Below, one piece after another: positions 3,710 to 19,515 of a DNA stretch of 32,000 bases. Position 1 is the first letter of the stretch. Every line of letters begins with the position of its first letter. Both the position numbers and the translations under genes were made by a program. The stretch spans positions 22,635-54,634 of the forward strand of contig JAQTTP010000006.1 of NCBI GenBank assembly GCA_028710695.1, read 5' to 3'. This DNA is from Candidatus Iainarchaeum sp. (GTDB lineage Archaea > Iainarchaeota > Iainarchaeia > Iainarchaeales > 0-14-0-20-30-16). Below the pieces are notes generated by a model, which searched no databases, was not told the origin of the DNA, and saw only the letters and a list, made by a program, of their open reading frames with translations.

Positions 3710-6010
3710 ATGGTTGTGGCAAAAGTAAAGGAAGCAGTAAGAAGCGATGTTGGAAGAGGAATAGCAAGGCTTGGGAAAAAACTGATGAAATCCCTAAAGC
3801 TAGAAGTGGGTGACGCAATAATAATAAAAGGCAAGAAAGAGGCCTGTGCATTAGTGTGGTCTGAGCTGCCTGATGACGAAAGCATAATCAGAATGGATGG
3901 AATCTTAAGGCACAATGCAGGAACAAGCCTGGACGAGGAAGTAGAATTAAAAAAAGTGGAATTAAAAGAAGCAAAGAAGATGCTTTTAGCCCCAACTCAA
4001 GAGATAAGTTTTTCAGCTGATTTTGTAGATTATGTTAAAGAAAAAATACTTAATATGCCTTTACTTATGGGAAATTCTTTGCTTATTAATGTGCTTGGAA
4101 CCCAATTGCAGTTAATAGTTACAAAAATGGAACCCTCACCAGGAAGAATTACATGGGATACTGATTTGAAGATTGCTGACAAGCCAATGAAAGTTGCAGA
4201 AAAAACAAAAGGAATAAGATATGAAAATATTGGTGGTTTGGAGAAAGAAATTGAAGCAATAAGAGAGATGGTAGAGATACCAATGAAGAATCCAGAAGTG
4301 TTTAGAAAATTGGGAATAAGCCCGCCAAAAGGAGTTTTATTACACGGTCCTCCTGGAACTGGGAAAACATTATTGGCTAAGGCAGTTGCAAATGAGACTG
4401 ATGCACATTTCATAACTCTAAATGGTCCAGAAATAATGAGCAAATATTATGGGCAAAGTGAAGAGAACTTGAGAAATGTTTTCAAAGAGGCAAAAGAAAA
4501 TGCGCCATCAATAATTTTTATTGATGAAATTGATGCAATCGCATCAAGCAGAGAAGAAACCCACGGAGAGGTAGAGAAGAGGGTTGTTTCTCAGCTTTTA
4601 ACTATGATGGACGGCTTGGAAGCAAGAGGGAATGTAATTGTAATTGCTGCAACCAACAGGCCAGATTCTTTAGATGCTGCTTTGAGAAGACCCGGAAGGT
4701 TTGATAGAGAATTACAAATTGGAATGCCAACAAGAATTGCAAGAAAAGAAATCCTGCAAATCCATACAAGGAACATGCCAATTACAATAAAAAAAGAAGA
4801 AATAACTTCTGACTTAATTTCAAAATTAAAAGAACTTACTAGGGATGGAAAAAAGGAACAAGATTTATCAAAAATGATAAAAGTTTTAGAATCGGATGAT
4901 AATGTAAACAAAAAAATTACTGACTTGTACAAACAAGTAGATCCAACTTTACTAAACGACTTGTTAAAGCAGAGTTTAGTTGCTTATCTTGCTGATGAAT
5001 CTATTGGTTTTTCAGGGGCAGATTTAGAGGTGCTTGCAAAAGAAGCAGCAATGCGTGCTTTGAGAAGAGTAATGCCACAGATAAAACAAGCAGAAGGAAA
5101 TTTGTCTAAGAAAATATTAGATGACATAATCATAACTATAGAAGACTTCTTTGAAGCATTAAAGTTTGTGGAACCGTCAGCTATGAGAGATATTTCTGTT
5201 GAGATACCTAAAGTTAGTTGGGACGATGTTGGTGGTCTTGAAGATGTAAAGGCAAAGATAAGAGAAAGCATAGAATGGCCAATGAAATATCCAGAACATT
5301 TCAAAACTGCAGGGATTTCGCCTCCACAAGGAATTATGCTTTATGGTCCACCTGGAACTGGAAAAACATTGATAGCAAAAGCAATTGCAAATGAGGCTAA
5401 ATTGAACTTCATTGTTGTAAAAGGCCCAGAACTTTTGAGTAAGTGGGTTGGAGAAAGTGAAAAAGGAATAAGAAAAATATTTAGTAGAGCAAGACATGTT
5501 GCTCCGGCAATGATTTTCTTTGATGAAATTGATGCTTTGGTTCCAACAAGAGGAAGAAGTAATAATGATGTTTCAGATAAGTTGACTGCACAATTGCTTA
5601 CAGAAATGGACGGTGTAACAAGAATACATGATATAATCATTATGGGATCTACAAATAGACTTGATTTACTAGATCCTGCTCTTTTAAGGCCCGGAAGATT
5701 TGATGTTGCCTTGTATGTTGGTCTTCCAGAAAAAGATGCAAGAAAGCAGATCCTAAAAGTTCATTCAAAAGACATGACTTTATCAAGTACAGTAAAGTTC
5801 GAAGAAGTTGCTGAGAAAACAGAAAACTATTCTGGCGCGGACTTGAGAGCGGTTTGTGTAGAGGCCGGATTGGAAGCAATAAGACGAGCAATAAAAGAGA
5901 AGAGGGATCTAAAAGAAGTTACAATGAAAGACTTCCACGAAGCAATTAAGAAAATAAAGCCAAGCGTGGATAGCGCGATAGTAGAAGGCAAAGATGTGAA
6001 TGTAAGATAG
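3710..6010 (+). CDS. cdc48: Cdc48/VAT-type double-ring AAA+ ATPase
   Basis: N-domain [21 protein letters not shown]...GDAIIIKG. Two Walker A motifs ([13 protein letters not shown] and [13 protein letters not shown]), two Walker B motifs (IIFIDEIDA and MIFFDEIDA), and SRH regions [20 protein letters not shown] and [20 protein letters not shown] prefer ATG 3710, preceded by GGTGAT at 3701, over the TTG at 3686. Confidence 0.93.
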
Positions 6011-6062
6011 GGGAACAAACTTTCCCCTTTGAGTTGGGGCCATGAAGGCCCGGATTTTTTCT
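6010..6062 (+). terminator. Hairpins plus T-tract after cdc48
   Basis: GGGGAA-caaact-TTCCCC (6010-6027), then GGGCC-atgaa-GGCCC (6037-6051), followed by the T-run ggattttttct. Confidence 0.5.
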
Positions 6063-6069
6063 CTAGTAA

Positions 6070-6084
6070 ACTATTTATATTAAT
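6070..6084 (+). promoter_or_regulatory. TATA-box-like element upstream of the pilin-like cluster
   Basis: ACTATTTATATTAAT starts 31 nt upstream of ATG 6101. The same ACTATTTA(T/A)(A/G) core recurs at 3634, 9872 and 15696 upstream of other + strand genes. No Shine-Dalgarno lies between it and the ATG, which suggests a leaderless or very short leader transcript. Confidence 0.45.
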
Positions 6085-6100
6085 TTATTCTATCTTATAA

Positions 6101-6679
6101 ATGCATAAAGTAGGACAAAAAATCAACAAATGGCGTAATCTCCATTCCTTGAAATCTCAGAAAGGTCAGGAAAGTATTGTATTTGAAGTTCTTATTGCAG
6201 TTATACTAATGACTTTTGTTTTTGTAATTGGGGGGTATGCAATGAAATCCCTAAACGAAACAAAATGCTCAAAAGAAATAGACTTGTCTATGAGCCAACT
6301 TGCGAGCGCAATAGAAAAAGCAGGAGCAACAAGTATTGGTACATATTACTACAAATTTTCGCCATCTTCTTGTTTTAGAAATAAAGAAACAAGTTATGAA
6401 CTAAAATCTGAAAGTGCAACTTTGTGTTCATCTTATTGTCCTGGAACTAATTATTGTTACCTGCTGAAATATCAAAATCAACAAGATCCAGTTAGTCCTC
6501 TTAGGTATAAATGCGTAAATATTTCGAAATACGTTGGATTAAATAATACTGGAATTTGTTCTGCACAAGGAGATTATGATGTAATGCAAGTTAACCCAAC
6601 TATTTTCCACCAGGGGGATTATTTGTTTGAATCAAAATCTTTGACAGTTCCATCAATTTGTATTTATTATAAACAATAA
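6101..6679 (+). CDS. Secreted/anchored Cys-rich protein with a class III (type IV pilin-like) signal-peptide-like N-terminus
   Basis: Basic leader MHKVGQKINKWRNLHSLKSQKG, then QESIVFEVLIAVILMTFVFVIGGYAM ([KR]G followed by Q-x-S, an acidic residue and a >20-aa hydrophobic helix). There are 8 Cys in the C-terminal domain. It is the first gene of a same-strand cluster. Confidence 0.7.
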   Translation: MHKVGQKINKWRNLHSLKSQKGQESIVFEVLIAVILMTFVFVIGGYAMKSLNETKCSKEIDLSMSQLASAIEKAGATSIGTYYYKFSPSSCFRNKETSYELKSESATLCSSYCPGTNYCYLLKYQNQQDPVSPLRYKCVNISKYVGLNNTGICSAQGDYDVMQVNPTIFHQGDYLFESKSLTVPSICIYYKQ

Positions 6680-6701
6680 GTGATGCCATCGCCGTGATTT
6701 T

Positions 6702-7328
6702 ATGATTGAGTTTATAATTTCCAAAATAGGTATATTGCTTTTTGCAGTGGCCGTGGCATCAGTGTTGATATTTTTTTCTTTAGGAATGAAAGATATTTTT
6801 GTTGCAGAGCAAGGCAGGGAAATTGCATCAACAATTATTAAGCAAGCAAAAGGTTTGTCGGAAACAGAGGCTTTGTGTACATCATTGAGGCTTAACTTGC
6901 CAAGATATATTGATATTTATGGGTCTACAGAAACATTTTCTTTGTCTGCATTGAATTATTTTTTTAAGATTTCAAAAGTTGATATTGGAAACGGCCAGAA
7001 TTCTGTTGTATTTGGAATTTACAAAAAAAATGGAAAAAAAGTTGGAAAACTTTTTGCAGTTGATAGTTTTAATACCAACTCTCAAATAGATTTTATTGGA
7101 ACTCCTGTGCCTGATGTTGACAAACCAGGTGAGACTTTAACTTGGGATCCGACCAACTCTTTGAGTAATGTAGTTTATGTTGTAAAAACAGTAATAAATG
7201 GTGAAGAAATAATCCATCTTGTTAAATGTGGGTATGACAAAAAAAGTGCAAACCCATATTCAAGTTGTTATTCTGCATTTGAAAATCTAAATATACCGGG
7301 GGTTTATTGTGTTCCAAAAGAAGATTAA
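6702..7328 (+). CDS. Membrane-anchored/secreted protein of the pilin-like cluster
   Basis: The N-terminus is itself a hydrophobic helix with an early Glu (MIEFIISKIGILLFAVAVASVLIFF). An in-frame TGA at 6681-6683 excludes a longer leader. There are 4 Cys in the ectodomain. The 3' end overlaps the next gene by 20 nt. Confidence 0.65.
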   Translation: MIEFIISKIGILLFAVAVASVLIFFSLGMKDIFVAEQGREIASTIIKQAKGLSETEALCTSLRLNLPRYIDIYGSTETFSLSALNYFFKISKVDIGNGQNSVVFGIYKKNGKKVGKLFAVDSFNTNSQIDFIGTPVPDVDKPGETLTWDPTNSLSNVVYVVKTVINGEEIIHLVKCGYDKKSANPYSSCYSAFENLNIPGVYCVPKED

Positions 7329-7923
7329 AAAGCAAAGTAGTAAGCCCCAAAGAAAAAAGGGCTTTATAGGAGCAATTGGTGATGATCTGCCAAGCTTGGT
7401 GCCAATATTTTTCTCTTTATTGATTTTTTTTGGAACTCTTTCATTTGTGTTTGTTACTCTTGGTGACAGAAATGCATATCTAGAAAAATATTTTGAGTCA
7501 ATATCTGTTTCAAAAGAAATATTGGGAAGTAGTTTTTATTCTGGATATACAGATTTTGATATGAGAGTTAAAGGGGTAAACACAACAGAGAAATATGCTG
7601 TTGGATTAATTTATAATCCAGAACTTTTAGGAAACAATATTTTTGATAAAGATTATTTTATTCAAAGTTTTGATAATCTTGGTATAGAAGAATTCCAGAT
7701 TCCAATAGATGATGTTGATTTTTTTTGTACTGTTGATGACAGTATTTGTAATTCTAATTCTGACAAAAATTATTTTGTATTTTCTAACGACCCAGATTTT
7801 GAAAATTCAATAGAACTGGACATTATTTTTAAAAACAACCAACCTCTAACCTATCTTTACCCAGTTACTTTGTCAACAAGTAAAGGGGTATTTGGGGTAT
7901 ATCTATATTTAATTGTGTGGTAA
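7309..7923 (+). CDS. Pilin-like cluster protein 3
   Basis: GTG start inside the previous gene. Basic leader MFQKKIKKQSSKPQRKKG, then FIGAIGDDLPSLVPIFFSLLIFFGTLSFVFVTL. There are 2 Cys (FFCTVDDSIC). Confidence 0.6.
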   Translation: MFQKKIKKQSSKPQRKKGFIGAIGDDLPSLVPIFFSLLIFFGTLSFVFVTLGDRNAYLEKYFESISVSKEILGSSFYSGYTDFDMRVKGVNTTEKYAVGLIYNPELLGNNIFDKDYFIQSFDNLGIEEFQIPIDDVDFFCTVDDSICNSNSDKNYFVFSNDPDFENSIELDIIFKNNQPLTYLYPVTLSTSKGVFGVYLYLIVW

Positions 7924-7925
7924 AT

Positions 7926-8690
7926 ATGAAGTCGAGAAAAATGAATCAGAGGGGCCAAGCAGCAGTTACTGATGCCTTATTTTTCTTGACTATAGTGGCA
8001 GTTGTTAGTGTACTGATGTTTACAAATGCAATGGGCTATGGAAAGAATCTAATTGATAGTAGTGTTGAGTATTACGAAAATACTTACATAATTTCTGCAT
8101 TAAAAACTTTGTATGCAGTAAGTAGTCCATTAGAATTAGATAAATATAGTGTTTTTGAAAGCAACTATAATGATACTTTGTTTACAATGTTAAAAAAAGA
8201 TTATTATCTTGACACAGTTTTGTCAAATGAAATGAAAATAAAAGTAATGGAATCTTTAAAAGAAATAATGAAACCAATAAACAAAAACAAAAATTATCTT
8301 TTCTATATTTATAACCCCAAAAATCAAGCAGGAGTTGGAGAGATTGTTCTTGCTGGATTTGTAATAACTCAAGAAGAGAGTGATGAAAAAATAACTTATA
8401 TTTGTGGAAAATCTTTAGACCCACAAATAAATAATATCTCTTTAGATGATATTTCATATTACCTTTCAAGGCACTTATTAGGGCAGAGATTTGCAGAAGG
8501 AAGAATGAGTTTATTAGAAAAACAAGGTGCGGATTCAACTCTTGTTATAGTAAATACAGGGCTTCTTGTTTGGACTGCAACCCCTGACATAGATAAATAT
8601 GGTGACTTTGTAGATCCCGGAACAGAATTTTTGAAAACAAACTGTTGTGTTTATACTCCTGGAACTTTATCTTGTCAGGTGAATCCGTAA
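7926..8690 (+). CDS. Pilin-like cluster protein 4 (class III signal-peptide-like)
   Basis: ATG 7926 lies 2 nt after the upstream TAA. MKSRKMNQRG, then QAAVTDALFFLTIVAVVSVLMF. There are 4 Cys, including the C-terminal NCCVYTPGTLSCQ. The GTG at 7917 in the ORF track is an alternative start. Confidence 0.65.
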   Translation: MKSRKMNQRGQAAVTDALFFLTIVAVVSVLMFTNAMGYGKNLIDSSVEYYENTYIISALKTLYAVSSPLELDKYSVFESNYNDTLFTMLKKDYYLDTVLSNEMKIKVMESLKEIMKPINKNKNYLFYIYNPKNQAGVGEIVLAGFVITQEESDEKITYICGKSLDPQINNISLDDISYYLSRHLLGQRFAEGRMSLLEKQGADSTLVIVNTGLLVWTATPDIDKYGDFVDPGTEFLKTNCCVYTPGTLSCQVNP

Positions 8691-8756: not shown

Positions 8757-9836
8757 TTATTTTTTGTCTGATTCTTTTTTCTCTTCCTTCTTTTTTGGTG
8801 GCTCCAAATCCAAATTTAGATTTAGATCTAAATCGCCTAAATCATTATCAGAAATCTTTTTGTCTAAATTAAAATTAGGTAAATCCATGTTTAGATCAAA
8901 TGGGTTTGTTTCTTCTTTCTTTTCTTCCTTTTTAGTGTCCTTTTCTGCTGGCTTGTCTTCTCCAGTGCCTTGTATTTTCTTGATTTCTTCATCTCTTGTA
9001 AGCTGAGTAAAAATATTATCTACAATTTGGTTTATTTCTCCTCTTTGGTTTGGCTCTCTGTTGTGTCTATCTCTGAACCGTTCTACTTCGACTTCTGTTA
9101 TTTTTTCGATTTCTTCCTTTGGCTTATTCAAATCAGTTTTCTCTTTTACTTGGCTGTAAATTACATCTATAATATTATCACGTAATTCTCTTGGAGTTTC
9201 TAGTTCTTCATCAGTATTTGGTTTGCCTTTTAATTCTTTAAGCCTTTCTCTGTAATGCCTTGAGCTTGGATCTGTTTCAGTGGCTTGGCTTTGTTCTTTG
9301 TCTTGGGGTTCACCAGGCCTATAAAATCTTCGTAATCTTCTTGGTATTTCAGAAACATCTTTATCTTTGTAGTTTTGTGGATTTTCGATAACTTTATCTG
9401 GTTCTACAGTCTTTTTTTCTTCCTGTTCGGCAAGTTTTATATTTTCTTCTTGTAATTTGCTTAATTCCTCTCCCAAATTTTCTTCAGGAGGCGCAAGCTG
9501 TATCGAGTTTTTTAATTGGCTCATAAGTTTGTCAACTTCACTAAAACTAGAATCTACTGTTGGTTCTGGGGCTTTAGTGGGTGCCAAATCCTTGCTAGTA
9601 AGAGTCAAATCCTTTCCTGATTCTTCTTTGTTTTGGTTTACTTTGTCCTTTGATTTAGATTCATTTTTTATTTCTTGTTTTTTTCCGCCTTTGCCATATA
9701 GCTCATCTATAACATCTCTTGCGATTTTTCTGGAATAACCTTCTGCCATAACCGCCTGAATGACTTCGTCTGTAGAATAGATGTTTTTGTAAGTTTGTAG
9801 AAGCTTAACTAAATTCTCAACTTCCTTTGAAGCCAT
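8757..9836 (-). CDS. Acidic, E/K-rich, largely disordered protein with a UBA-like N-terminal helical module and a C-terminal D-L-N repeat tail
   Basis: N-terminus: MASKEVENLVKLLQTYKNIYSTDEVIQAVMAEGYSRKIARDVIDELYG (three-helix pattern with an xEGY loop, as in UBA-type domains). About 280 aa of charged low-complexity sequence follows. The tail is FDLNMDLPNFNLDKK...LGDLDLNLNLDLEPPKKKEEKKESDKK. A TATA-like CTATATATAAATAA sits at 9852-9865 just upstream. Confidence 0.7.
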   Translation of the reverse strand: MASKEVENLVKLLQTYKNIYSTDEVIQAVMAEGYSRKIARDVIDELYGKGGKKQEIKNESKSKDKVNQNKEESGKDLTLTSKDLAPTKAPEPTVDSSFSEVDKLMSQLKNSIQLAPPEENLGEELSKLQEENIKLAEQEEKKTVEPDKVIENPQNYKDKDVSEIPRRLRRFYRPGEPQDKEQSQATETDPSSRHYRERLKELKGKPNTDEELETPRELRDNIIDVIYSQVKEKTDLNKPKEEIEKITEVEVERFRDRHNREPNQRGEINQIVDNIFTQLTRDEEIKKIQGTGEDKPAEKDTKKEEKKEETNPFDLNMDLPNFNLDKKISDNDLGDLDLNLNLDLEPPKKKEEKKESDKK

Positions 9837-9886: not shown

Positions 9887-9909
9887 TTTGTGTTTTTATA
9901 TTGATATAT

Positions 9910-10404
9910 ATGGAAATTACTTTTATAGGCATTCTGTACTCAATTTTGTACTGGGCTTGTTTTTCCGCCGTATTATTTTTTTTAATACTGCTTTTTGGGC
10001 ATTTTTATAAGGCTTTTGACGAAAAGTTGAAAATAAAAGATATTTTCAAGTATTTTTTGTTTACCTTGATCATATCCTACATAGTTTTGATATTGGCTTA
10101 TTTCCTTCCTGCGGCATTTGGGGTAAAACTTGAGTTTATTGCATTTTATACTACTTGGTACATGTACCTGTATGTTGTAATTGTAATTTTGCTGAAGCTT
10201 TTGCTTTATGCATTGGTACTATCAGTAATTCTTCAACCAGTAATTTTACTTGGGATTTTCCTTTATAGATACTTTGTTGAAAAAAATTCTAACGAGTTAT
10301 TGTCAAAATTTTATGTTTCAGTGATAATATCATTTGTGATTAGTTTGATATTGTATATCTTCCCTTGGATTCTGGGCGGAATGATTGCAATGGTGTATTT
10401 TTAG
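9910..10404 (+). CDS. Small polytopic membrane protein (about 5 TM), unknown function
   Basis: Almost entirely hydrophobic helices (ILYSILYWACFSAVLFFLILLF, FLFTLIISYIVLILAYFL, YMYLYVVIVILLKLLLYALVLSVIL, VISFVISLILYIFPWILGGMIAMVYF). Its TAG stop (10402-10404) overlaps the GGTGAT RBS of the next gene. TTG 9901 is an alternative start. Confidence 0.65.
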   Translation: MEITFIGILYSILYWACFSAVLFFLILLFGHFYKAFDEKLKIKDIFKYFLFTLIISYIVLILAYFLPAAFGVKLEFIAFYTTWYMYLYVVIVILLKLLLYALVLSVILQPVILLGIFLYRYFVEKNSNELLSKFYVSVIISFVISLILYIFPWILGGMIAMVYF

Positions 10405-10412
10405 GTGATTTG

Positions 10413-13400
10413 ATGGACTACAAACAAATATTCATGTACTTTGTTATTTTGAATATCTTTTTTTCTGCAATTGCTTTCTCTTATGTTCCGCCATCAGATT
10501 ATATGGGGCAGAACTCTTGTAAAACTGAAAGGCTAAGCCCTGAGGAAATAAATATTCTATGGGATGAATATTTGAGAACTGGCTTTACCCCAAATCAAAT
10601 AATTTCGGGGACTCCTGAAGAATTAAAAAATTCTGAAAAAACAGTTGAAAAAAAAGATTTTAATAAAGATGCGACTTTTACATCTATAGTTGATGATAAA
10701 GCAATAACTGCAGATGTGAGGACAGATCAAAAAATCCCTTATAACTCCTATATATTTAACAAAGTTATTGATGGAGACTATGCTTATGGTGTATTCCTAA
10801 ATGATTCTTTGAGAATTGGGCGATGTAAAGATGGTACAATTGGTTGTGCAGTTACTTCTGATAATAATGGGCTATATCTTAGAAATTCAGATGGCGCAAT
10901 TAAAACTTTTACTGAAGGTGTAAAATCTTTTTTTACAGGGGATGAAATAAAACAAAAAGACGCATATGGTGCCGGAGTAGTTAATCAAGAAGAAATAAAA
11001 GATAAAGTGGATTTAAGTCAAGCAGATGCTCAACAAGATATTAATGTTGTGAAATTTACTCACGAGCTTCAAGAAAAGCCAATGAGCAGTTTTTTAGTTG
11101 ATGATTTTTCATCAGAATTTATGATGCTGTGTAATAATCAAGATTCGGACAGCAGATGTAGAGTTTTGTTGTATTCTTTTTTTGATAAAAGATATAATGC
11201 CTATTATTCAGGCAGTCTAATATCTATTGCTGGTGGCCCAATTGCTTGGGGTGCAGTAAGCAAAGTATTTGGTGGTTTTGCATCATTCAAATATGGTGCG
11301 ATGGTAACAAAAGCAGTAAAAAAAGTTACAGATCCAGCAAAGCAATTATTGAAAGATACCTGGTATAAATTAATTGCAAAAGATTTCGGATATTTTTCAA
11401 AAAATGTAGGGGACACAGTGCTTAAAGCAACACAAAAAGGAGGCATTGGTGGTAGCCTGAAAGTTTTAGGGGATAATGCTTATGAAATTGTTCCTGCTAA
11501 ACTTGTTGCAGCAATTCAAAAAGATATGGTTCCAGGTTTGACTACTGCCCAAGCAAAGGAAGCCATTGGGGATGTAGTAGTTGCAAGAGCATCAGCAGCA
11601 GATTATGGACGAGGATTTTTAGAATCTGTCTCTGGAGAGTCTGATGTTTTTATTAAAAGAGCAGCTGCTATTGAGGCGGCAGATAAAGCACCAGTATTGC
11701 TTGGTGCACAAATGAATGATACTTTTTTGAATGAAAATTTTGCAGGATGGGTTGTAGATACTGCGGGTGGATCTGTTGCAGCAATGAAACCAATAACAAA
11801 ATTTGATATTGCCCCAAAATTTTTAAAGGGAGAAATAGATCCAAGCAAAATTTATAAACTTGCGGCAGGTGGAACAGCAGCAGAAGGTGTTGCACTTTCA
11901 GATTTAAAGAACTTTTTGAAAAGTAATCCTTCAGAAGAATACCTTGTTGAAATTGCTGGGACTTCAGTTCCCCTAAATGCCTCAACTGTAGATGCAGTAA
12001 AAGATGCGGCAGCAAAAGAGGGTATTGGAAGCCTTAGTATACTCACCGCAAGCAGGACCCCCATCGATTTTGGTAAATTTGGCGGCTATGAAGGGTTTAA
12101 ACAGAAATTTGCAAAAGACTACTATGATTTTGTAAAATACAAATACACTACTGCTGCAAATAATTATGATACAATTATGAACACTTTGCAAGGCGCAAAA
12201 GCAATGCCTACAAGAAATGCAAATGCAATGAACTTCTTTATGAAATTGTGGGCTGGGAAAGGAAGTGCAATTGGTGGCCTTGTAAGGCTTGAAGCTATTC
12301 CAACAATGTATTGGATGGCAAAAACAGGAGAGTTTGGAGATACTTTTAAAGCATATATGATTAAAGAGCAAGATCTGACAACAATAAAAACATACACTGG
12401 CGCAGATAGCTTGTATAACAGTGCATATATGGATATTTTTTCTAGAGAAGGAAGCAATAATGGAGATATGTTTTCTAAAGTTATTGACTATATAGTGTTT
12501 ATTGACAACATTGGATTATTGTCTAATGAAATGGAACAAAGCATAAAGTCTTTCTTTAGTCACCAGTTTAGAGACGAGCCCGAAGATTTAGTATTTTATA
12601 ATGAAGCACTAAAATGTGGTAAAGGTGCTTGTACTATATCTCTAAATAAACAAGCAGCAAAAGAAAAAATAGAAAACACAGATGTTGTTTCAGGAAAAGA
12701 TGTTGATATAATAAATGATAAAATACATGTGAACACTCAATCATTGCAAGGAACAAAAAATTATGTTGTTGAATTCCCAGACCCAGTTCCATCTGATGAC
12801 CCAGACCCAGGATATACTTTGAGTGCATTCGTGCATAGAATGAATATTGTTGGAAAAGATGGTGAAATAAATTTGGCATCAGCACTAGCACAAAAAGAAG
12901 ATTGTGTAAGTAAAGCAAAAGGCCTAACTATTGTTGGTATTCCATTTGGTAGCATGTTTGCATCTGATGTTGATCCATCTAAATTTGCAATACCTTTGGG
13001 AATAGTTGATAACTCAATTGGTTTAGCTCTTACTGGAATTCCTGGATTGGCATTGAGTGTAGTATCGTCTATACTAATAATGGAACAAGTTCAAGAACAA
13101 GTTGGAAATTGTGTAGATATTGTTGATGGATACTATGTTACTGACTCACTGATTCCTTACCAAGACATGAATGATTCTTTAATGTCTAAGATTGGCGGTG
13201 TGGCATCTAAAGGAGAAAAAGAAACAGAGAAATCTCTTCTGGAAGGAACACCTCTTGATAAAATCGCAACTACAATAAAAGACCAATTTAATAAAATAAT
13301 AAGCAATAAAACACATGAAGCAATACAGATAAATGTTGAAACAAAAGGAAAAACTAATGGATCTGTTTATGCGGAAGATATCTTCCTGATTTGGGAAGGT

Positions 13401-14747
13401 GGAAATGCAAGTCAGATAAATCTAAAGTATGATGATAAATCGTACACAACTTTAAAAGATAAAGACGGGAAAACAGCAATAATAGATAATGAGAAAGGGA
13501 TTTTTGAAATAAATGGAAAGCAAATTAATAATCCGGATCTTGTAAGATTAATGAAAAGAAATAATAGGGGCCCGTTCTATAGTATGCCTGTTGCAGTAAC
13601 TGTATTTTCAGCAAACAGTGTTGGAAATATGTTTGAAGCACACACAAATGGTGATTTTTTAGTAAAGGATCCAAGCATACTTGATTGTATTAGAGCTGGA
13701 GTGTTTGAGCAAACTGGAATGACTATGATGGGCAACTCTTTGTATGAACATATGGGCCCAGTTACAGAAATCTTGGTTGAATCTGGAACAATAATTAGAC
13801 CAAGTTTGTATGGTTCTGAAAACCAATTCTCAATGGAAGGAACAACTATTGGAAGAATTCCTATGCCTAATTCAACACTTACTGTTAAAGGTGATAGAAC
13901 TGTAGTAATTAAGAACGCACAAAAGTCTTACGAATTAGATGGTGTTGTTGGTATTGCCTTTGAAAAAGGATCAATTGTTTACAAAGCGCAAACAAATGAA
14001 TTTATTATGTGGATAGAAAACATGGCACAAATTGATGGAAAATATATTTCTAATTTGATGTCAAATCACAACCCCCAAATAAATGAAGAAACTGGTTGTG
14101 AAGAAGATGCATTTGATTTGAAATTAGCTCCAATTCCCGGAGATGTAACTGCGGAAGAAGAAGTTGGAAAGATGAATATTGCTTTAGAAAAAGCAGGCCC
14201 ATTCCAATACTTCCAGACTCCAAAATATAATATAATTTTCTATTCAAAAATGGAAAGTGGGGTTTGTAAAAAATATATGAAAGTTGTAGACAGAGAAACT
14301 GGAAGAGTAATAAGTGATGCAGAAGTAACAAGCGTTACAAAAACTCCAGATGGTTATAAAGTTACAACTGCGGATGGAAAAACACATGATATCGGATTTG
14401 AAGTTGCAAATGGGAAGCCGATATTGTCTTATAATGGAGACAAGCAGCCTTTGCTAATTGCACAAGGAAAAGATGGTGCATTCTATTACGATCCAAGTAC
14501 AGGAAAATGGTATGTTGATAATGCACAAGTATTGCCAATAGATGATGACTTTAAGTTACATGGGTCTGCAACACAAGGAAATAATACATATCCGTCTGAT
14601 AACCCAATAAGTGGGGCTTTAAGTCCATCAGATAGTTCAAAATCAAGTTGGGATATTCCATTAACTGGAAGTCTATTAGCTTCAGGATTAGTAATGTTAG
14701 TAAGTAGTATGTTTGTATATTTGTACTTTAAGAGGGAGGATGAGTAA
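10413..14747 (+). CDS. Orphan 1,444-aa secreted/membrane protein with an N-terminal signal peptide and a C-terminal IPLTG-TM-KREDE sorting-signal-like anchor
   Basis: ATG 10413 is preceded by AGGTGAT (10403-10409), and the ORF-track start at 10365 overlaps the upstream gene. The signal peptide is MDYKQIFMYFVILNIFFSAIAFS. Internal Gly/Ala-rich hydrophobic segments include LISIAGGPIAWGAVSKVFGGFA and IGLALTGIPGLALSVVSSILIM. The Ser-rich stalk SGALSPSDSSKSS is followed by WDIPLTG-SLLASGLVMLVSSMFVYLYF-KREDE. I recognise no enzymatic motif. Confidence 0.8.
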   Translation: MDYKQIFMYFVILNIFFSAIAFSYVPPSDYMGQNSCKTERLSPEEINILWDEYLRTGFTPNQIISGTPEELKNSEKTVEKKDFNKDATFTSIVDDKAITADVRTDQKIPYNSYIFNKVIDGDYAYGVFLNDSLRIGRCKDGTIGCAVTSDNNGLYLRNSDGAIKTFTEGVKSFFTGDEIKQKDAYGAGVVNQEEIKDKVDLSQADAQQDINVVKFTHELQEKPMSSFLVDDFSSEFMMLCNNQDSDSRCRVLLYSFFDKRYNAYYSGSLISIAGGPIAWGAVSKVFGGFASFKYGAMVTKAVKKVTDPAKQLLKDTWYKLIAKDFGYFSKNVGDTVLKATQKGGIGGSLKVLGDNAYEIVPAKLVAAIQKDMVPGLTTAQAKEAIGDVVVARASAADYGRGFLESVSGESDVFIKRAAAIEAADKAPVLLGAQMNDTFLNENFAGWVVDTAGGSVAAMKPITKFDIAPKFLKGEIDPSKIYKLAAGGTAAEGVALSDLKNFLKSNPSEEYLVEIAGTSVPLNASTVDAVKDAAAKEGIGSLSILTASRTPIDFGKFGGYEGFKQKFAKDYYDFVKYKYTTAANNYDTIMNTLQGAKAMPTRNANAMNFFMKLWAGKGSAIGGLVRLEAIPTMYWMAKTGEFGDTFKAYMIKEQDLTTIKTYTGADSLYNSAYMDIFSREGSNNGDMFSKVIDYIVFIDNIGLLSNEMEQSIKSFFSHQFRDEPEDLVFYNEALKCGKGACTISLNKQAAKEKIENTDVVSGKDVDIINDKIHVNTQSLQGTKNYVVEFPDPVPSDDPDPGYTLSAFVHRMNIVGKDGEINLASALAQKEDCVSKAKGLTIVGIPFGSMFASDVDPSKFAIPLGIVDNSIGLALTGIPGLALSVVSSILIMEQVQEQVGNCVDIVDGYYVTDSLIPYQDMNDSLMSKIGGVASKGEKETEKSLLEGTPLDKIATTIKDQFNKIISNKTHEAIQINVETKGKTNGSVYAEDIFLIWEGGNASQINLKYDDKSYTTLKDKDGKTAIIDNEKGIFEINGKQINNPDLVRLMKRNNRGPFYSMPVAVTVFSANSVGNMFEAHTNGDFLVKDPSILDCIRAGVFEQTGMTMMGNSLYEHMGPVTEILVESGTIIRPSLYGSENQFSMEGTTIGRIPMPNSTLTVKGDRTVVIKNAQKSYELDGVVGIAFEKGSIVYKAQTNEFIMWIENMAQIDGKYISNLMSNHNPQINEETGCEEDAFDLKLAPIPGDVTAEEEVGKMNIALEKAGPFQYFQTPKYNIIFYSKMESGVCKKYMKVVDRETGRVISDAEVTSVTKTPDGYKVTTADGKTHDIGFEVANGKPILSYNGDKQPLLIAQGKDGAFYYDPSTGKWYVDNAQVLPIDDDFKLHGSATQGNNTYPSDNPISGALSPSDSSKSSWDIPLTGSLLASGLVMLVSSMFVYLYFKREDE
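14655..14744 (+). other. C-terminal tripartite sorting-signal-like segment (IPLTG motif, 20-aa hydrophobic helix, charged tail)
   Basis: Codons att cca tta act gga (14655-14669) give IPLTG. They are followed by SLLASGLVMLVSSMFVYLYF and KREDE-stop. Confidence 0.55.
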
Positions 14748-18163: not shown

Positions 18164-18958
18164 ATGATCCAAAGAAAGAAAGTTGGGCTTGCATTAGGTG
18201 GTGGAGGCTCAAAAGGATTTGCACATATTGGTGTCTTGCAAGTTTTTGAAGAAGAAGGCATTCCAGTAGATTATATTTGTGGAACTTCTATTGGATCTTT
18301 AATTGGTGGCCATTATTCTTTGTATAAAGATATAGATCATCTAAAATCTGATGCCTTTTCGTTTTTGAAAGAAAATGATTTAGACTTATTTAGTTTGTTA
18401 AAACCTGGATATGAGAAAACACTAAAAAATTTACAGTTCTTTTTAGAATCTGTATATAGGGATCATAGGTTTTCTGACACAAAAACCCCTTTTTCTTGTA
18501 CTGCAGTGAATATAGAAAATGGTGCTTTATTAGATATCGATGACGGAAGACTTATTGATGCAATTTTTGCAAGTATGAGTATTCCAGGTCTGTTTCCTGC
18601 AAGATTTTTTTGGGGTTCTTGGCTAGTTGATGGCGGGGTACTAAATAATTTGCCAGTAGATATTGTTGCAAAAAAAGGTTATGATGTTGTTATAGGCTGC
18701 GATCTAGGGGACATTGAAGCTCTAAAACAAATAGAGGCAAAACCAACAAGAATAGATGCTTTGAAAAGGTCATTTATTATCATGTCTGATGATTTGACAG
18801 CAAGAATAAAAAAATCAGTTCCAAATGCAATAATAATAAATCCAAAAATAGTTGTTTCAACACTGAGATTTGATTATGCTTTGTCTAAAAAACAAATTGT
18901 TGAGGGCGAAAAATCAGCAAGAGCAAAAATAGATGAAATTAAGAAGAGGCTAAAGTGA
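18164..18958 (+). CDS. Patatin-like phospholipase
   Basis: Oxyanion/Gly-rich loop GLALGGGGSKGFAHIGV, nucleophile elbow GTSIGSLIGG (GxSxG), and catalytic Asp motif LVDGGVLNNLP. ATG 18164 is preceded by GGAGGAG (18153-18159) and lies 1 nt after the rnp2 stop. Confidence 0.88.
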   Translation: MIQRKKVGLALGGGGSKGFAHIGVLQVFEEEGIPVDYICGTSIGSLIGGHYSLYKDIDHLKSDAFSFLKENDLDLFSLLKPGYEKTLKNLQFFLESVYRDHRFSDTKTPFSCTAVNIENGALLDIDDGRLIDAIFASMSIPGLFPARFFWGSWLVDGGVLNNLPVDIVAKKGYDVVIGCDLGDIEALKQIEAKPTRIDALKRSFIIMSDDLTARIKKSVPNAIIINPKIVVSTLRFDYALSKKQIVEGEKSARAKIDEIKKRLK

Positions 18959-19515
18959 TTCTTTTGCAGAAAAAACAAAACATTTTTGAGAAGGTAAGGC
19001 ACTATGCACATAACAAAGGCAAAAATAAAAAGTCATTAACTATTTTTTCAAAGATATTTGTATTTTTAATCTCATTTTTGTTTGCATTTTTAATTCTATA
19101 TCTTATTTTTGAATACTTTAACTTATACTATTATGTTTCTTTGTTTTTTTCTTACCTAGTTTACAATTTTTTCAGTTCGAGCTTTCAAAATATTACAATG
19201 ATTGGAACAACAGTAGACTTTTCTACTTTCCAAATTAATATAACTGATGTTTGTTCTGGAGCTTATGAATTAATTGTATTTATTTCTTTGATATTTGCTT
19301 GCTTTGAAATTAAGTTGTGGAAAAGGGCAGTAGGAATTTTAACATACCTTCTGGTGTTTGTAATTTTTAATTTGGTAAGAATGATAATAGTAATTTATTC
19401 TCTGGGGATTTTTGATTTGATGTCAGTAGATATCTTACACACAGTTTTATTCAAATTTGGATTTTGGATATTTACATTATTGTTCTTTGTATACTTTTTG
19501 ATTTTTGCAGAATAA
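18955..19515 (+). CDS. Minimal (186-aa) exosortase/archaeosortase-family transpeptidase
   Basis: Polytopic membrane protein with INITDVCSGAYELIVF (Cys100, tgt 19252-19254), FNLVRMIIV (the N-x-x-R motif, Arg142, aga 19378-19380) and DILHTVLFKFG (His162, cac 19438-19440). These are the Cys/Arg/His triad context of the exosortase/archaeosortase family. The GTG start overlaps the patatin stop (GTGA). Confidence 0.72.
   Translation: MILLQKKQNIFEKVRHYAHNKGKNKKSLTIFSKIFVFLISFLFAFLILYLIFEYFNLYYYVSLFFSYLVYNFFSSSFQNITMIGTTVDFSTFQINITDVCSGAYELIVFISLIFACFEIKLWKRAVGILTYLLVFVIFNLVRMIIVIYSLGIFDLMSVDILHTVLFKFGFWIFTLLFFVYFLIFAE

Follow-up and report, generated by a model that had tools for sequence, protein, structure and literature searches.

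Four conserved pilin-like genes as a candidate accessory module of a divergent type IV filament system in Iainarchaeota

Four consecutive genes of a Candidatus Iainarchaeum genome, here called A, B, C and D, encode proteins that we interpret, with a probability of about 0.6, as an accessory minor-pilin-like module of a phylum-specific and highly divergent type IV filament (T4F) system of the Iainarchaeota. The genes lie in a 32,000-nucleotide stretch of contig JAQTTP010000006.1 (hereafter the window), and the evidence consists of their conservation, synteny and sequence motifs, the architecture that structure models give for A and D, and the presence of filament machinery in the genome. A–D are single-copy core genes of this DPANN phylum: A was found in 179 of 196 and D in 171 of 196 genomes of the order, and C in 191 of 215 genomes of the phylum and in 56 of 58 high-quality genomes. 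A large protein database holds 543 homologs of C, none of them annotated.

Results

Organization of the gene cluster

The first-pass annotation, made from the sequence of the window, had described four coupled genes on the forward strand; the reading frames and gaps were confirmed, and the N-termini that it quoted are exact (Table 1). A and B are separated by 22 nt, B and C overlap by 20 nt, and C and D are separated by 2 nt when measured from the ATG at position 7926, the probable start of D. From this codon D is 254 aa long (257 aa from the upstream GTG), which is longer than A, B or C. Median spacings among orthologous loci are 8 nt for A–B, −4 nt for B–C and −4 nt for C–D, the latter two pairs overlapping in most loci. 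The order A-B-C-D is invariant, and the full arrangement ending with the downstream giant gene was present in 10/10 sampled genomes. Because order, coupling and motifs are kept in ~70 orthologous loci, the pattern is not due to chance. A terminator-like hairpin sets the cluster apart from the upstream Cdc48 gene, and the position of a TATA-like box implies that A–D have a promoter of their own and an mRNA that is leaderless or nearly so.

Table 1 Features of the A–D cluster and linked genes in the window
Feature	Position	Strand	Remarks
Terminator-like hairpin GGGCC-atgaa-GGCCC, then T-run	6036..6061	+	Read from the sequence; 3′ of the Cdc48 gene
TATA-like box ACTATTTATA	6070..6079	+	Read from the sequence; centre ~26 nt 5′ of the ATG of A
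Gene A, pilin-like, 192 aa	6101..6679	+	ORF; 22-aa basic leader ending KG↓Q, beta head
Gene B, pilin topology, leaderless, 208 aa	6702..7328	+	ORF
Gene C, 204 aa	7309..7923	+	ORF; GTG start, leader ending KG↓F
Gene D, pilin-like	7917..8690	+	ORF; leader ...QRG↓Q, alpha/beta head
Small polytopic membrane protein	9901-10404	+	Stays linked to A–D
Giant exported surface protein, 1,460 aa	10365-14747	+	3′ of D in 10/10 sampled genomes
Mini-archaeosortase gene	18955..19515	+	In relatives borders the ATPase end of the A–D locus

Conserved class III sites and cysteines

The N-termini of A and D carry conserved class III-type processing sites. Among 62 orthologs of A, position −2 is K or R in 59, position −1 is G or A in all 62, position +1 is Q in all 62 and position +7 is E in 60; the corresponding counts for 67 orthologs of D are 55 (K/R at −2), 67 (G or A at −1), 67 (Q at +1) and 67 (D at +6). 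Protein C (66 orthologs) has G at −1 in 66, K or R at −2 in 63, an Asp pair at +7/+8 in 66 and prolines at +10 and +14 in 66. Its cleavage site is followed by the invariant sequence G-x-I-G-D-D-L-P-S-L-x-P (GDDLPSLxP), a transmembrane helix and a head. The first 14 residues of the predicted mature protein are so rich in Gly, Pro and Asp that a helix is unlikely there, which would make this an atypical mature N-terminus. The sites of A, C and D do not differ in form from those of genuine pilins encoded by the source genome, and in each of these three proteins the N-terminus is the best-conserved region. The predicted mature proteins begin at Q23 (A), F19 (C) and Q11 (D, numbered in the 254-aa form).

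Protein B has no leader in any of 67 orthologs (0/67). Every one of them starts exactly three residues ahead of a Phe, giving an N-terminus of the form M-x-x-F-x-x-S-K, with G, E, D or A as third residue and no basic one; a hydrophobic helix and then a C-terminal domain come after it. A stop codon lies 21 nt 5′ of the start, with no start codon between. The proposed division into three proteins with leaders and one without is correct in number, but the leaderless protein (MIEFIISK...) is the second gene of the cluster and not the fourth. The proposal of class III-type signals stands for the conserved sites of A, C and D, with C atypical, and fails for B, which has no signal peptide.

The even numbers of Cys residues given earlier (8, 4, 2 and 4 in A, B, C and D) were identical on recounting. 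All eight in A are invariant or nearly so and would make up four conserved disulfide pairs in the head; in B, C59, C176, C189 and C203 are kept in at least 90% of orthologs; C has one conserved pair, located in the head; and in D the invariant C160 and C240 make up one conserved pair. The conserved pairs indicate extracellular heads.

Structure models and remote homology

AlphaFold (AF2) models of A (pLDDT 88.5) and D (pLDDT 89.7, pTM 0.80) each have a long alpha1 helix, covering residues 23-75 of A (53 residues) and 8-64 of D (57 residues), and a globular head. Both are predicted to be pilin-like lollipops in which the C-terminal half of alpha1 packs on the head. For B and C the sequence proxy for this helix is a gap-free run poor in Pro and Gly, of ~60 residues in B (~4-66) and ~40 in C. 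A pilin fold, proposed as a check on the first-pass reading, is thus predicted for A and D, with heads that have no pilin match in Foldseek: the best PDB hit to A had E ~1, with a model of the XcpGHIJK pseudopilus at rank 5 (E=1.6, TM 0.26), and the best hit to D had E=0.013 at TM ~0.13, with no significant pilin match. Profile searches of A–D against the PDB returned noise only, such as PilE1 on the helix of A (E=0.09) and WDR5 for B (E=0.03).

Profile comparison by HHalign related A to P1 (probability 96.6%) and P2 (96.4%) over residues ~4-67; P1 and P2 are the two small pilins of the locus described below, whose status as pilins comes from motif and context only. Against the same two proteins D gave 37-52%, and B and C gave <8%. 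The comparisons of A with B, C and D, which control for an effect of transmembrane composition, also gave <8%. HHalign gives no evidence of paralogy among A–D, and the idea that the cluster holds four copies of one pilin was rejected.

Curated models do not recognise any of these families. Of 262 orthologs scanned (62 A, 67 B, 66 C and 67 D), none matched PF04021 (Class_IIIsignal), PF07790 (archaeal pilin N-terminal) or PF01917 (archaellin) at E≤0.01, so that the class III signal and archaeal pilin HMMs, suggested earlier as a check, gave a negative answer. The four proteins of the window matched nothing in Pfam at E≤10, and NCBIfam contained no match to A–D. As a positive control, PF04021 did match six short pilins encoded by the source genome (E=1e-8 to 1.5e-4); five exceeded the gathering score and one fell slightly short of it. 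None of the ectodomains had been recognised on first reading, and this holds for Pfam, NCBIfam and PDB profiles (A–D) and for significant Foldseek matches (A and D). Separately, the density of N-glycosylation sequons in A–D is not above the genome background; it was considered as evidence for surface location and set aside as uninformative.

An ancestral locus with filament machinery

The genome-wide search for machinery advised in the first-pass annotation identified four T2SSE, three T2SSF and two Peptidase_A24 proteins above the Pfam cut-off, all encoded outside the window (contigs C3 and C15); the two peptidase genes lie at C3:9701-10474 and C3:93065-94141. No match to these three families was found on the contig that carries A–D (C5), as had been claimed for the window. 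The claim that no machinery is nearby is accurate for the window, but the arrangement arose secondarily in this lineage, since relatives keep the machinery adjacent: an ATPase, a platform protein, P1 and P2 are encoded directly 5′ of A–D in 31/40 loci with enough flank, and the platform gene is in the A–D locus in 9/10 sampled genomes. In the source genome the ATPase, the platform protein and P1 are encoded on C15, and P2 on C3. P1 and P2 are probably the major pilins, which makes a minor or accessory role the better reading for A–D. Of the "major plus minor" pilin set first proposed, the pilin-like set remains and the majors are probably to be sought elsewhere in the genome. None of the outcomes that the first-pass annotation had named as refuting its interpretation was observed.

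The ATPase of the locus belongs to the T2SSE family, is about 760-765 aa long and has an N-terminal region of ~420 aa that is unrecognised. The platform protein is a PilC-like, fused double T2SSF protein of 750-790 aa (752 aa in the core system). It is barely detectable as T2SSF (Pfam E=0.37), is a genuine PilC homolog (HHalign 97.5%) and occurs in 58/58 of the high-quality genomes. Co-occurrence across related metagenome-assembled genomes (MAGs), another proposed check, showed A–D to be near-universal; the comparison with the platform gene is uninformative, because both are near-universal and mostly adjacent and because co-absence from a MAG may mean missing contigs.

On the other side of the cluster, the giant surface protein is encoded 3′ of D in 42/43 loci with a flank of at least 7 kb. 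A mini-archaeosortase homolog lies directly 5′ of the ATPase gene, in divergent arrangement, in 6/8 loci whose flank is 2.5 kb or longer, and in one locus (L104) the ATPase block is inverted with the archaeosortase homolog still adjacent. The ancestral locus has been split twice independently, both times between P2 and A, just upstream of A.

Discussion

Under the interpretation of A–D as an accessory minor-pilin-like module, we infer that A, C and D would enter the membrane and be cut after [KR][GA] by one of the two A24 (PibD/EppA-type) peptidases, and that their long hydrophobic alpha1 helices would allow them to join a filament core of P1 and P2. The N-terminus of B already corresponds to that of a mature pilin; no processing would be needed, and B could join the complex directly. 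Expression from one leaderless operon would couple the amounts of the four proteins, which would assemble at low copy number into a complex for priming or at the tip or base of the filament. In analogy to PilY1 and its bacterial minor pilins, or to GspH-K, this complex may cooperate with the downstream giant protein.

This proposal has to be weighed against the negative pilin searches, the missing cleavable signal of B, the atypical mature start of C and the stronger linkage of A–D to the giant membrane-anchored protein than to the ATPase, and we know of no filament seen so far in any Iainarchaeota. A possible but unlikely alternative is that A–D form a fixed, non-filamentous envelope complex in which pilin-topology anchors position, anchor or assemble an S-layer-like, archaeosortase-sorted giant protein, the link to ATPase and platform being indirect or historical. 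ArlF and ArlG (FlaF/FlaG), which link their machine to the S-layer, would be the comparable case: they too are pilin- or archaellin-like, have an N-terminal membrane helix and are encoded in a T4F locus, and the unprocessed N-terminus of B recalls them. A fixed complex would fit the presence of an archaeosortase gene in the ancestral locus, the predicted lack of processing of B in all orthologs, and the heads of A and D, which in Foldseek are unlike any known pilin. It would also fit both splits between P2 and A, which left A–D with the giant protein and away from the ATPase, the PilC homolog, P1 and P2. However, the alpha1 helices of A and D, 53-57 residues long and packed on the head in the models, have a filament-forming design and are not the short anchors of the ArlF/G type; a static anchor would not need conserved class III cleavage sites; and A is probably homologous to P1 and P2. 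Unlike ArlF/ArlG, A–D have no Pfam match, to archaellin, FlaF, FlaG or any other family, and no other archaellum genes were found in the A–D locus of the sampled genomes.

The proposed accessory module can be compared with bacterial minor-pilin modules, of which FimU-PilV-PilW-PilX with PilY1 (T4aP) and GspH-I-J-K (T2SS) are examples. As in these, four distinct single-copy pilin-like genes are kept in fixed order and coupled; the operon stands apart from, or follows, the genes for ATPase, platform and major pilins; it adjoins the gene for a very large non-pilin surface protein; and the member nearest to the major pilins (A) comes first and the largest (D) last. The likeness to bacterial tip complexes should be taken as a functional analogy and not as membership. 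In contrast to GspH/I/J/K and PilV/W/X, A–D lack matches in Pfam, NCBIfam and PDB profiles and, for A and D, significant Foldseek matches; their cleavage sites are of the archaeal class III form [KR][GA]↓Q, and B is leaderless. Unlike PilY1, the giant protein has a C-terminal membrane anchor or sorting signal.

The same gene order, with majors first, then the most major-like protein and the largest last, resembles gspG-H-I-J-K and could be taken to mean that P1, P2 and A–D build a short T2SS-type pseudopilus, a piston that would export the giant protein or other substrates, or expose them at the surface, in place of an adhesive pilus. The constant proximity of a large exported protein, and the retention of the system as a single-copy core trait throughout a phylum of reduced genomes, are in keeping with this. 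We nevertheless regard it as improbable: A–D show no homology to GspH-K, the Xcp model ranks only fifth in the Foldseek search with A, and archaea lack both an outer membrane and a secretin through which substrates would have to pass. That A–D are unrelated Sec-dependent proteins, secreted or signal-anchored, with coincidentally pilin-like N-termini is already disfavoured and very improbable: curated HMMs do call none of them a pilin, but residues −2, −1, +1 and +6/+7 ahead of the hydrophobic segment are conserved in 62-67 orthologs each, the N-terminus is the best-conserved part as it would not be in cleaved Sec signals, the genes are syntenic with those for ATPase, platform and pilins, and the modelled helix of A and D runs unbroken from the transmembrane segment into the head.

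Attachment to other cells is the presumed way of life of DPANN archaea, and to our knowledge the machinery for it has been identified in few of their lineages. In the Iainarchaeota, a complete, ordered and extremely divergent type IV pilus locus is a core genomic trait, and curated models miss its platform protein and six pilin-like families. A–D supply four new protein families for annotation and candidates for the filament, or the structure for cell contact, of this uncultured phylum. More tentatively still, the entire locus (divergent mini-archaeosortase, ATPase, platform, two pilins, A–D and downstream giant) might be an unclassified, phylum-wide and ancestrally contiguous T4F subsystem, in which A and D, the "born-mature" B and the GDDLPSLxP protein C would form a tip or priming complex presenting the giant protein on a cell-contact organelle. 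If true, the leaderless pilin-like B and protein C would widen the rules for T4F subunits.

Archaeal T4F systems, including the Epd "system 1" of Methanococcus maripaludis, share with the Iainarchaeota system a core in which a VirB11-type ATPase is joined by a platform of the TadC/ArlJ type and an A24 peptidase, as well as pilins whose +1 residue is Q, and loci with predicted accessory minor pilins and large surface proteins (PMC4858521, PMC13705601). They differ in that the six Iainarchaeota pilin-like families fall outside PF04021 and PF07790, whereas the genome's own Epd-type pilins are recognised, and in the 750-790-aa platform fusion and the unrecognised ~420-aa N-terminal region of the ATPase. 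Makarova, Koonin and Albers (2016, PMC4858521) did not find cognate pilins for some nanoarchaeal ATPase clades. Makarova, Wolf and Koonin (2019, PMC6393860, Fig. 2A) predicted "diverse pilins" in the DPANN "dark matter" beside FlaI/TadC, a case that resembles ours in having unannotated, signal-bearing small proteins beside T4P core genes and large surface proteins; the text there makes a generic statement only and does not describe the A–D families, their phylum-wide conservation, motifs or models, or a leaderless member. Ordered T4F loci are rare in DPANN according to a 2026 survey (PLoS Genet, PMC13705601), whereas the A–D locus is ordered in most Iainarchaeota.

Gene organization and coupling

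Re-measurement of the pilin-like genes A to D, four consecutive unannotated genes, returned the ORFs of the first-pass annotation, with the same lengths (192, 208, 204 and 254 aa), gaps (+22, −20 and +2 nt) and cysteine counts (8, 4, 2 and 4), and with N-termini that match the translated ORFs exactly. The leaderless protein, described there as the fourth, is the second, B, whose ATG has an in-frame stop 21 nt upstream and no start codon between. Translational-type coupling of A–D is conserved among relatives: B and C overlap in 38 of 70 loci and C and D in 43 of 70, and the median A–B gap across loci is 8 nt. Because a terminator-like hairpin and a TATA-like box precede A, the genes probably form a transcription unit of their own, probably leaderless.

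Coordinates of the four genes and associated features (window positions unless prefixed with C3 or C15, other contigs of the same genome)
Feature	Position	Strand	Description
GC-rich hairpins	6010-6061		Two hairpins and a T-run between the Cdc48 stop and the A promoter
Terminator-like hairpin	Before A		With T-run; read from sequence
TATA-like box	~26 nt before A ATG		ACTATTTATA; read from sequence
A	6101-6679	+	ORF, 192 aa
B	6702-7328	+	ORF, 208 aa
C	7309-7923	+	ORF, GTG start, 204 aa
D	7917-8690	+	ORF, 257 aa from GTG; 254 aa from ATG at 7926
Charged protein	8757-9836	−	Between D and the giant gene
Giant protein	10365-14747	+	Exported surface protein, 1,460 aa
Mini-archaeosortase	18955-19515	+	
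ATPase, platform, P1	C15:110114-115089		
P2	C3:154426-154947		
P2 and neighbour	C3:154426-155149		Includes an adjoining 63-aa headless pilin
Epd-like pilin cluster	C3:88774-97963		

The GC-rich hairpins and T-run upstream of A resemble, although in an archaeon, a signal of the intrinsic-terminator type; the genome has ~32% GC, and the gene content of the window, also ~32% GC, is archaeal (L15e, S3Ae, PAC2, RNase P subunits and Cdc48).

N-terminal signals and predicted folds

Substrates of PibD, FlaK and EppA follow a class III pattern, with G/A alternation at −1, a basic −2 residue and a site before the hydrophobic segment. The predicted cleavage sites of A, C, D and the small pilins P1 and P2, encoded in relatives between the ATPase/platform genes and A, are of this pattern.

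N-terminal residues in ortholog alignments
Protein	−2	−1	+1	Other positions
A (62 orthologs)	K/R 59	G 44, A 18	Q in all	+5 P, +6 F, +7 E (60/62)
C (66)	K/R 63	G in all	F or Y	G-x-I-G-D-D-L-P-S-L-x-P invariant
D (67)	K/R 55	G 55, A 12	Q in all	+6 D in all
P1	K/R mostly	G or A	Q in all	+7 R/K in 30/34
P2	K/R mostly	G or A	Q in all	+7 K 25, E 18, Q 13 (of 57)
B (67)	no site	no site	no site	Start M-x-x-[FY]-x-x-S-K in all; position 3 G, E, D or A

Since B starts without a leader in 67 of 67 orthologs, it lacks a class III site yet would have the topology of a mature pilin, and its sequence hints at a pilin whose leader was lost. With the initiator Met ignored, the B start (6702-6730; L-G-F-I-L-S-K-L-N-L) lies in register with mature P2 (Q-A-F-S-V-F-K-L-L-I), and both have F at position +3 and K at position +7; the similarity is not significant (HHalign 7%).

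AlphaFold2 models have the predicted architecture of a type IV pilin lollipop, the fold that the first-pass annotation had proposed to look for, in both A (62-sequence alignment; pLDDT 88.5, pTM 0.75; helix 23-75, then a beta head) and D (67 sequences; pLDDT 89.7, pTM 0.80; helix 8-64, then an alpha/beta head). By a calibrated sequence proxy, helix-compatible runs are predicted for B (~60 residues, uninterrupted) and C (~40 residues, after a Gly/Pro-rich N-terminal stretch). Foldseek searches of the A and D models against the PDB gave no significant match, sequence-profile searches of the PDB matched none of the four proteins, and the Pfam scan, including the class III signal and pilin HMMs, recognised none even at E ≤ 10; judged by these PDB libraries, the heads are new.

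In HHalign comparisons, the first ~65 residues of A score 96.6% against P1 and 96.4% against P2 (P1 against P2, 99.6%) and A scores below 8% against B, C or D; therefore the A–P1/P2 signal is not a product of hydrophobic composition alone. D is marginal against P1/P2 (37-52%), and B and C show no relationship to A, D, P1, P2 or each other. Positionally conserved cysteines comprise all eight in A, four in B, one pair in C (C140/C146 replace the usual pair in the studied genome) and one pair in D (C160/C240), and the count is even in 90, 99, 88 and 64% of A, B, C and D orthologs, respectively, a pattern that fits predicted disulfide-bonded extracellular heads.

Displaced machinery of a probable filament system

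As the first-pass annotation had noted, pilus machinery is absent nearby: the window's contig carries no ATPase, platform or peptidase. Contigs C3 and C15 of the genome (0.9 Mb, 86% complete) carry the genes of four T2SSE ATPases, of three T2SSF platforms and of two A24 peptidases. A rule-based census found ~20 N-termini with [KR]G followed by Q and a hydrophobic helix, some of them clustered near the gene of the second peptidase. Six short pilins among the ~20 match PF04021 (five above the gathering score, one just below), so the Pfam model is effective in this organism and the genome has active-looking class III substrates with the −2/−1/+1 pattern of A and D. A second pilin cluster, Epd-like and on C3, has nine class III-type N-termini around a 358-aa A24 peptidase gene; they belong to short pilins, to proteins of 121-162 aa and to a single protein of 798 aa, and three of the six tested are PF04021-positive.

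The dedicated platform has 752 aa and is a fusion of the double T2SSF-like kind. HHalign (97.5%, E=6.5e-12) identifies it as a true relative of PilC, yet against PF00482 it reaches no better than E=0.37, so standard annotation would miss it; it occurs in 195 of 215 genomes and in 58/58 high-quality ones. The dedicated ATPase has 765 aa, of which the N-terminal ~420 are unrecognised and contain cysteines.

Locus history and distribution

Conservation of the gene set across related genomes was borne out: A-B-C-D, a variable spacer and the giant gene follow one another in 10/10 well-assembled genomes, most of which have, upstream of A on the same strand, an ATPase orthologous to the 765-aa one (55-60% identity), a PilC-like protein of 750-790 aa, P1 and P2. 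Among 80 named loci, scored only on sides with ≥7 kb of flank, the order ATPase/PilC-P1-P2-A-B-C-D holds in 31 of 40 and the giant gene lies downstream of D in 42 of 43; P2 is tandemly duplicated in several. The locus broke independently in at least two lineages (the studied genome's family and a G179-like lineage, named for another genome), both times exactly between P2 and A. These arrangements show that the ancestral Iainarchaeota locus was ordered and that the splits are secondary.

Within the order, A occurs in 179 and D in 171 of 196 genomes, almost always single copy, ~1.7 kb apart on the same strand; the C profile matches 191/215 genomes of the phylum (56/58 high-quality ones). The relatives that bear names, Candidatus Iainarchaeum, Diapherotrites, AR10 and Ca. 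Forterrea, place the studied organism in the Iainarchaeota of the DPANN archaea. Homologs in a large protein database, 17 for A (single sequence) and 543 for C (profile), are all 'hypothetical' and without a Pfam domain.

A proposed minor-pilin-like module

We favour, at a probability of about 0.6, the reading of A–D as an accessory, minor-pilin-like module of a type IV filament system specific to the phylum, in counts made inside Iainarchaeota, a system in which the ATPase, the fused platform and P1 and P2, the probable majors, were displaced in the studied lineage. The earlier idea of a major plus minor pilin set thereby keeps its minor part in A–D, and the probable majors lie elsewhere in the genome. 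We infer that A, C and D are cleaved, that the subunits enter a filament and that they act as partners of the giant protein. The module resembles bacterial fimU-pilVWX-pilY1 and gspH-K in its four different single-copy subunits in fixed order, the first (A) most like the majors and the last (D) largest, with a giant surface protein alongside; no homology places A–D in the bacterial families.

The main rival, a fixed envelope complex serving the giant protein, draws support from B, predicted to be unprocessed, and from the tighter linkage of A–D to the giant gene than to the machinery, but the long pilin-type alpha1 helices of the A and D models and the conserved cleavage sites argue against it, and we consider it unlikely. 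A secretion pseudopilus is an improbable reading. That A–D are unrelated Sec proteins is very doubtful; in the ortholog alignments each protein is best conserved at its N-terminus, whereas a Sec signal is disposable.

In a generic statement, Makarova et al. 2019 (PMC6393860) took the signal-bearing dark-matter proteins that some DPANN genomes have beside FliI (their spelling)/TadC for probable pilins, and a 2026 survey (PMC13705601) found ordered T4F loci rare in DPANN and asked whether an originally contiguous cluster was split by genome reduction. Neither names Iainarchaeota or the A–D families; other papers state no more than 'type IV pili present'. Iainarchaeota, with an ordered ancestral locus and secondary splits, can be set beside the rarity found by the survey (PMC13705601).

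Neighbouring genes

In six of the eight loci with enough flank (examined: L059, L067, L078, L090, L096, L104, L121 and L122), a homolog of the mini-archaeosortase is the immediate upstream neighbour of the 760-aa ATPase gene and is divergently oriented to it; in L104 the homolog also adjoins the ATPase, whose block is inverted there. The ancestral locus thus seems to include a sortase, type IV filament genes and a giant protein with a sorting-like C-terminus.

In most relatives (L034-L043) the interval from D to the giant gene encodes, on the opposite strand, a highly charged protein that opens with a conserved PRRLRRF(Y)R motif; in the window's charged protein, which has an extra N-terminal domain, the motif lies near residue 165. 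The same interval in most relatives also holds a multi-TM protein with a GY..LR.G.P motif, a gene absent from the window.
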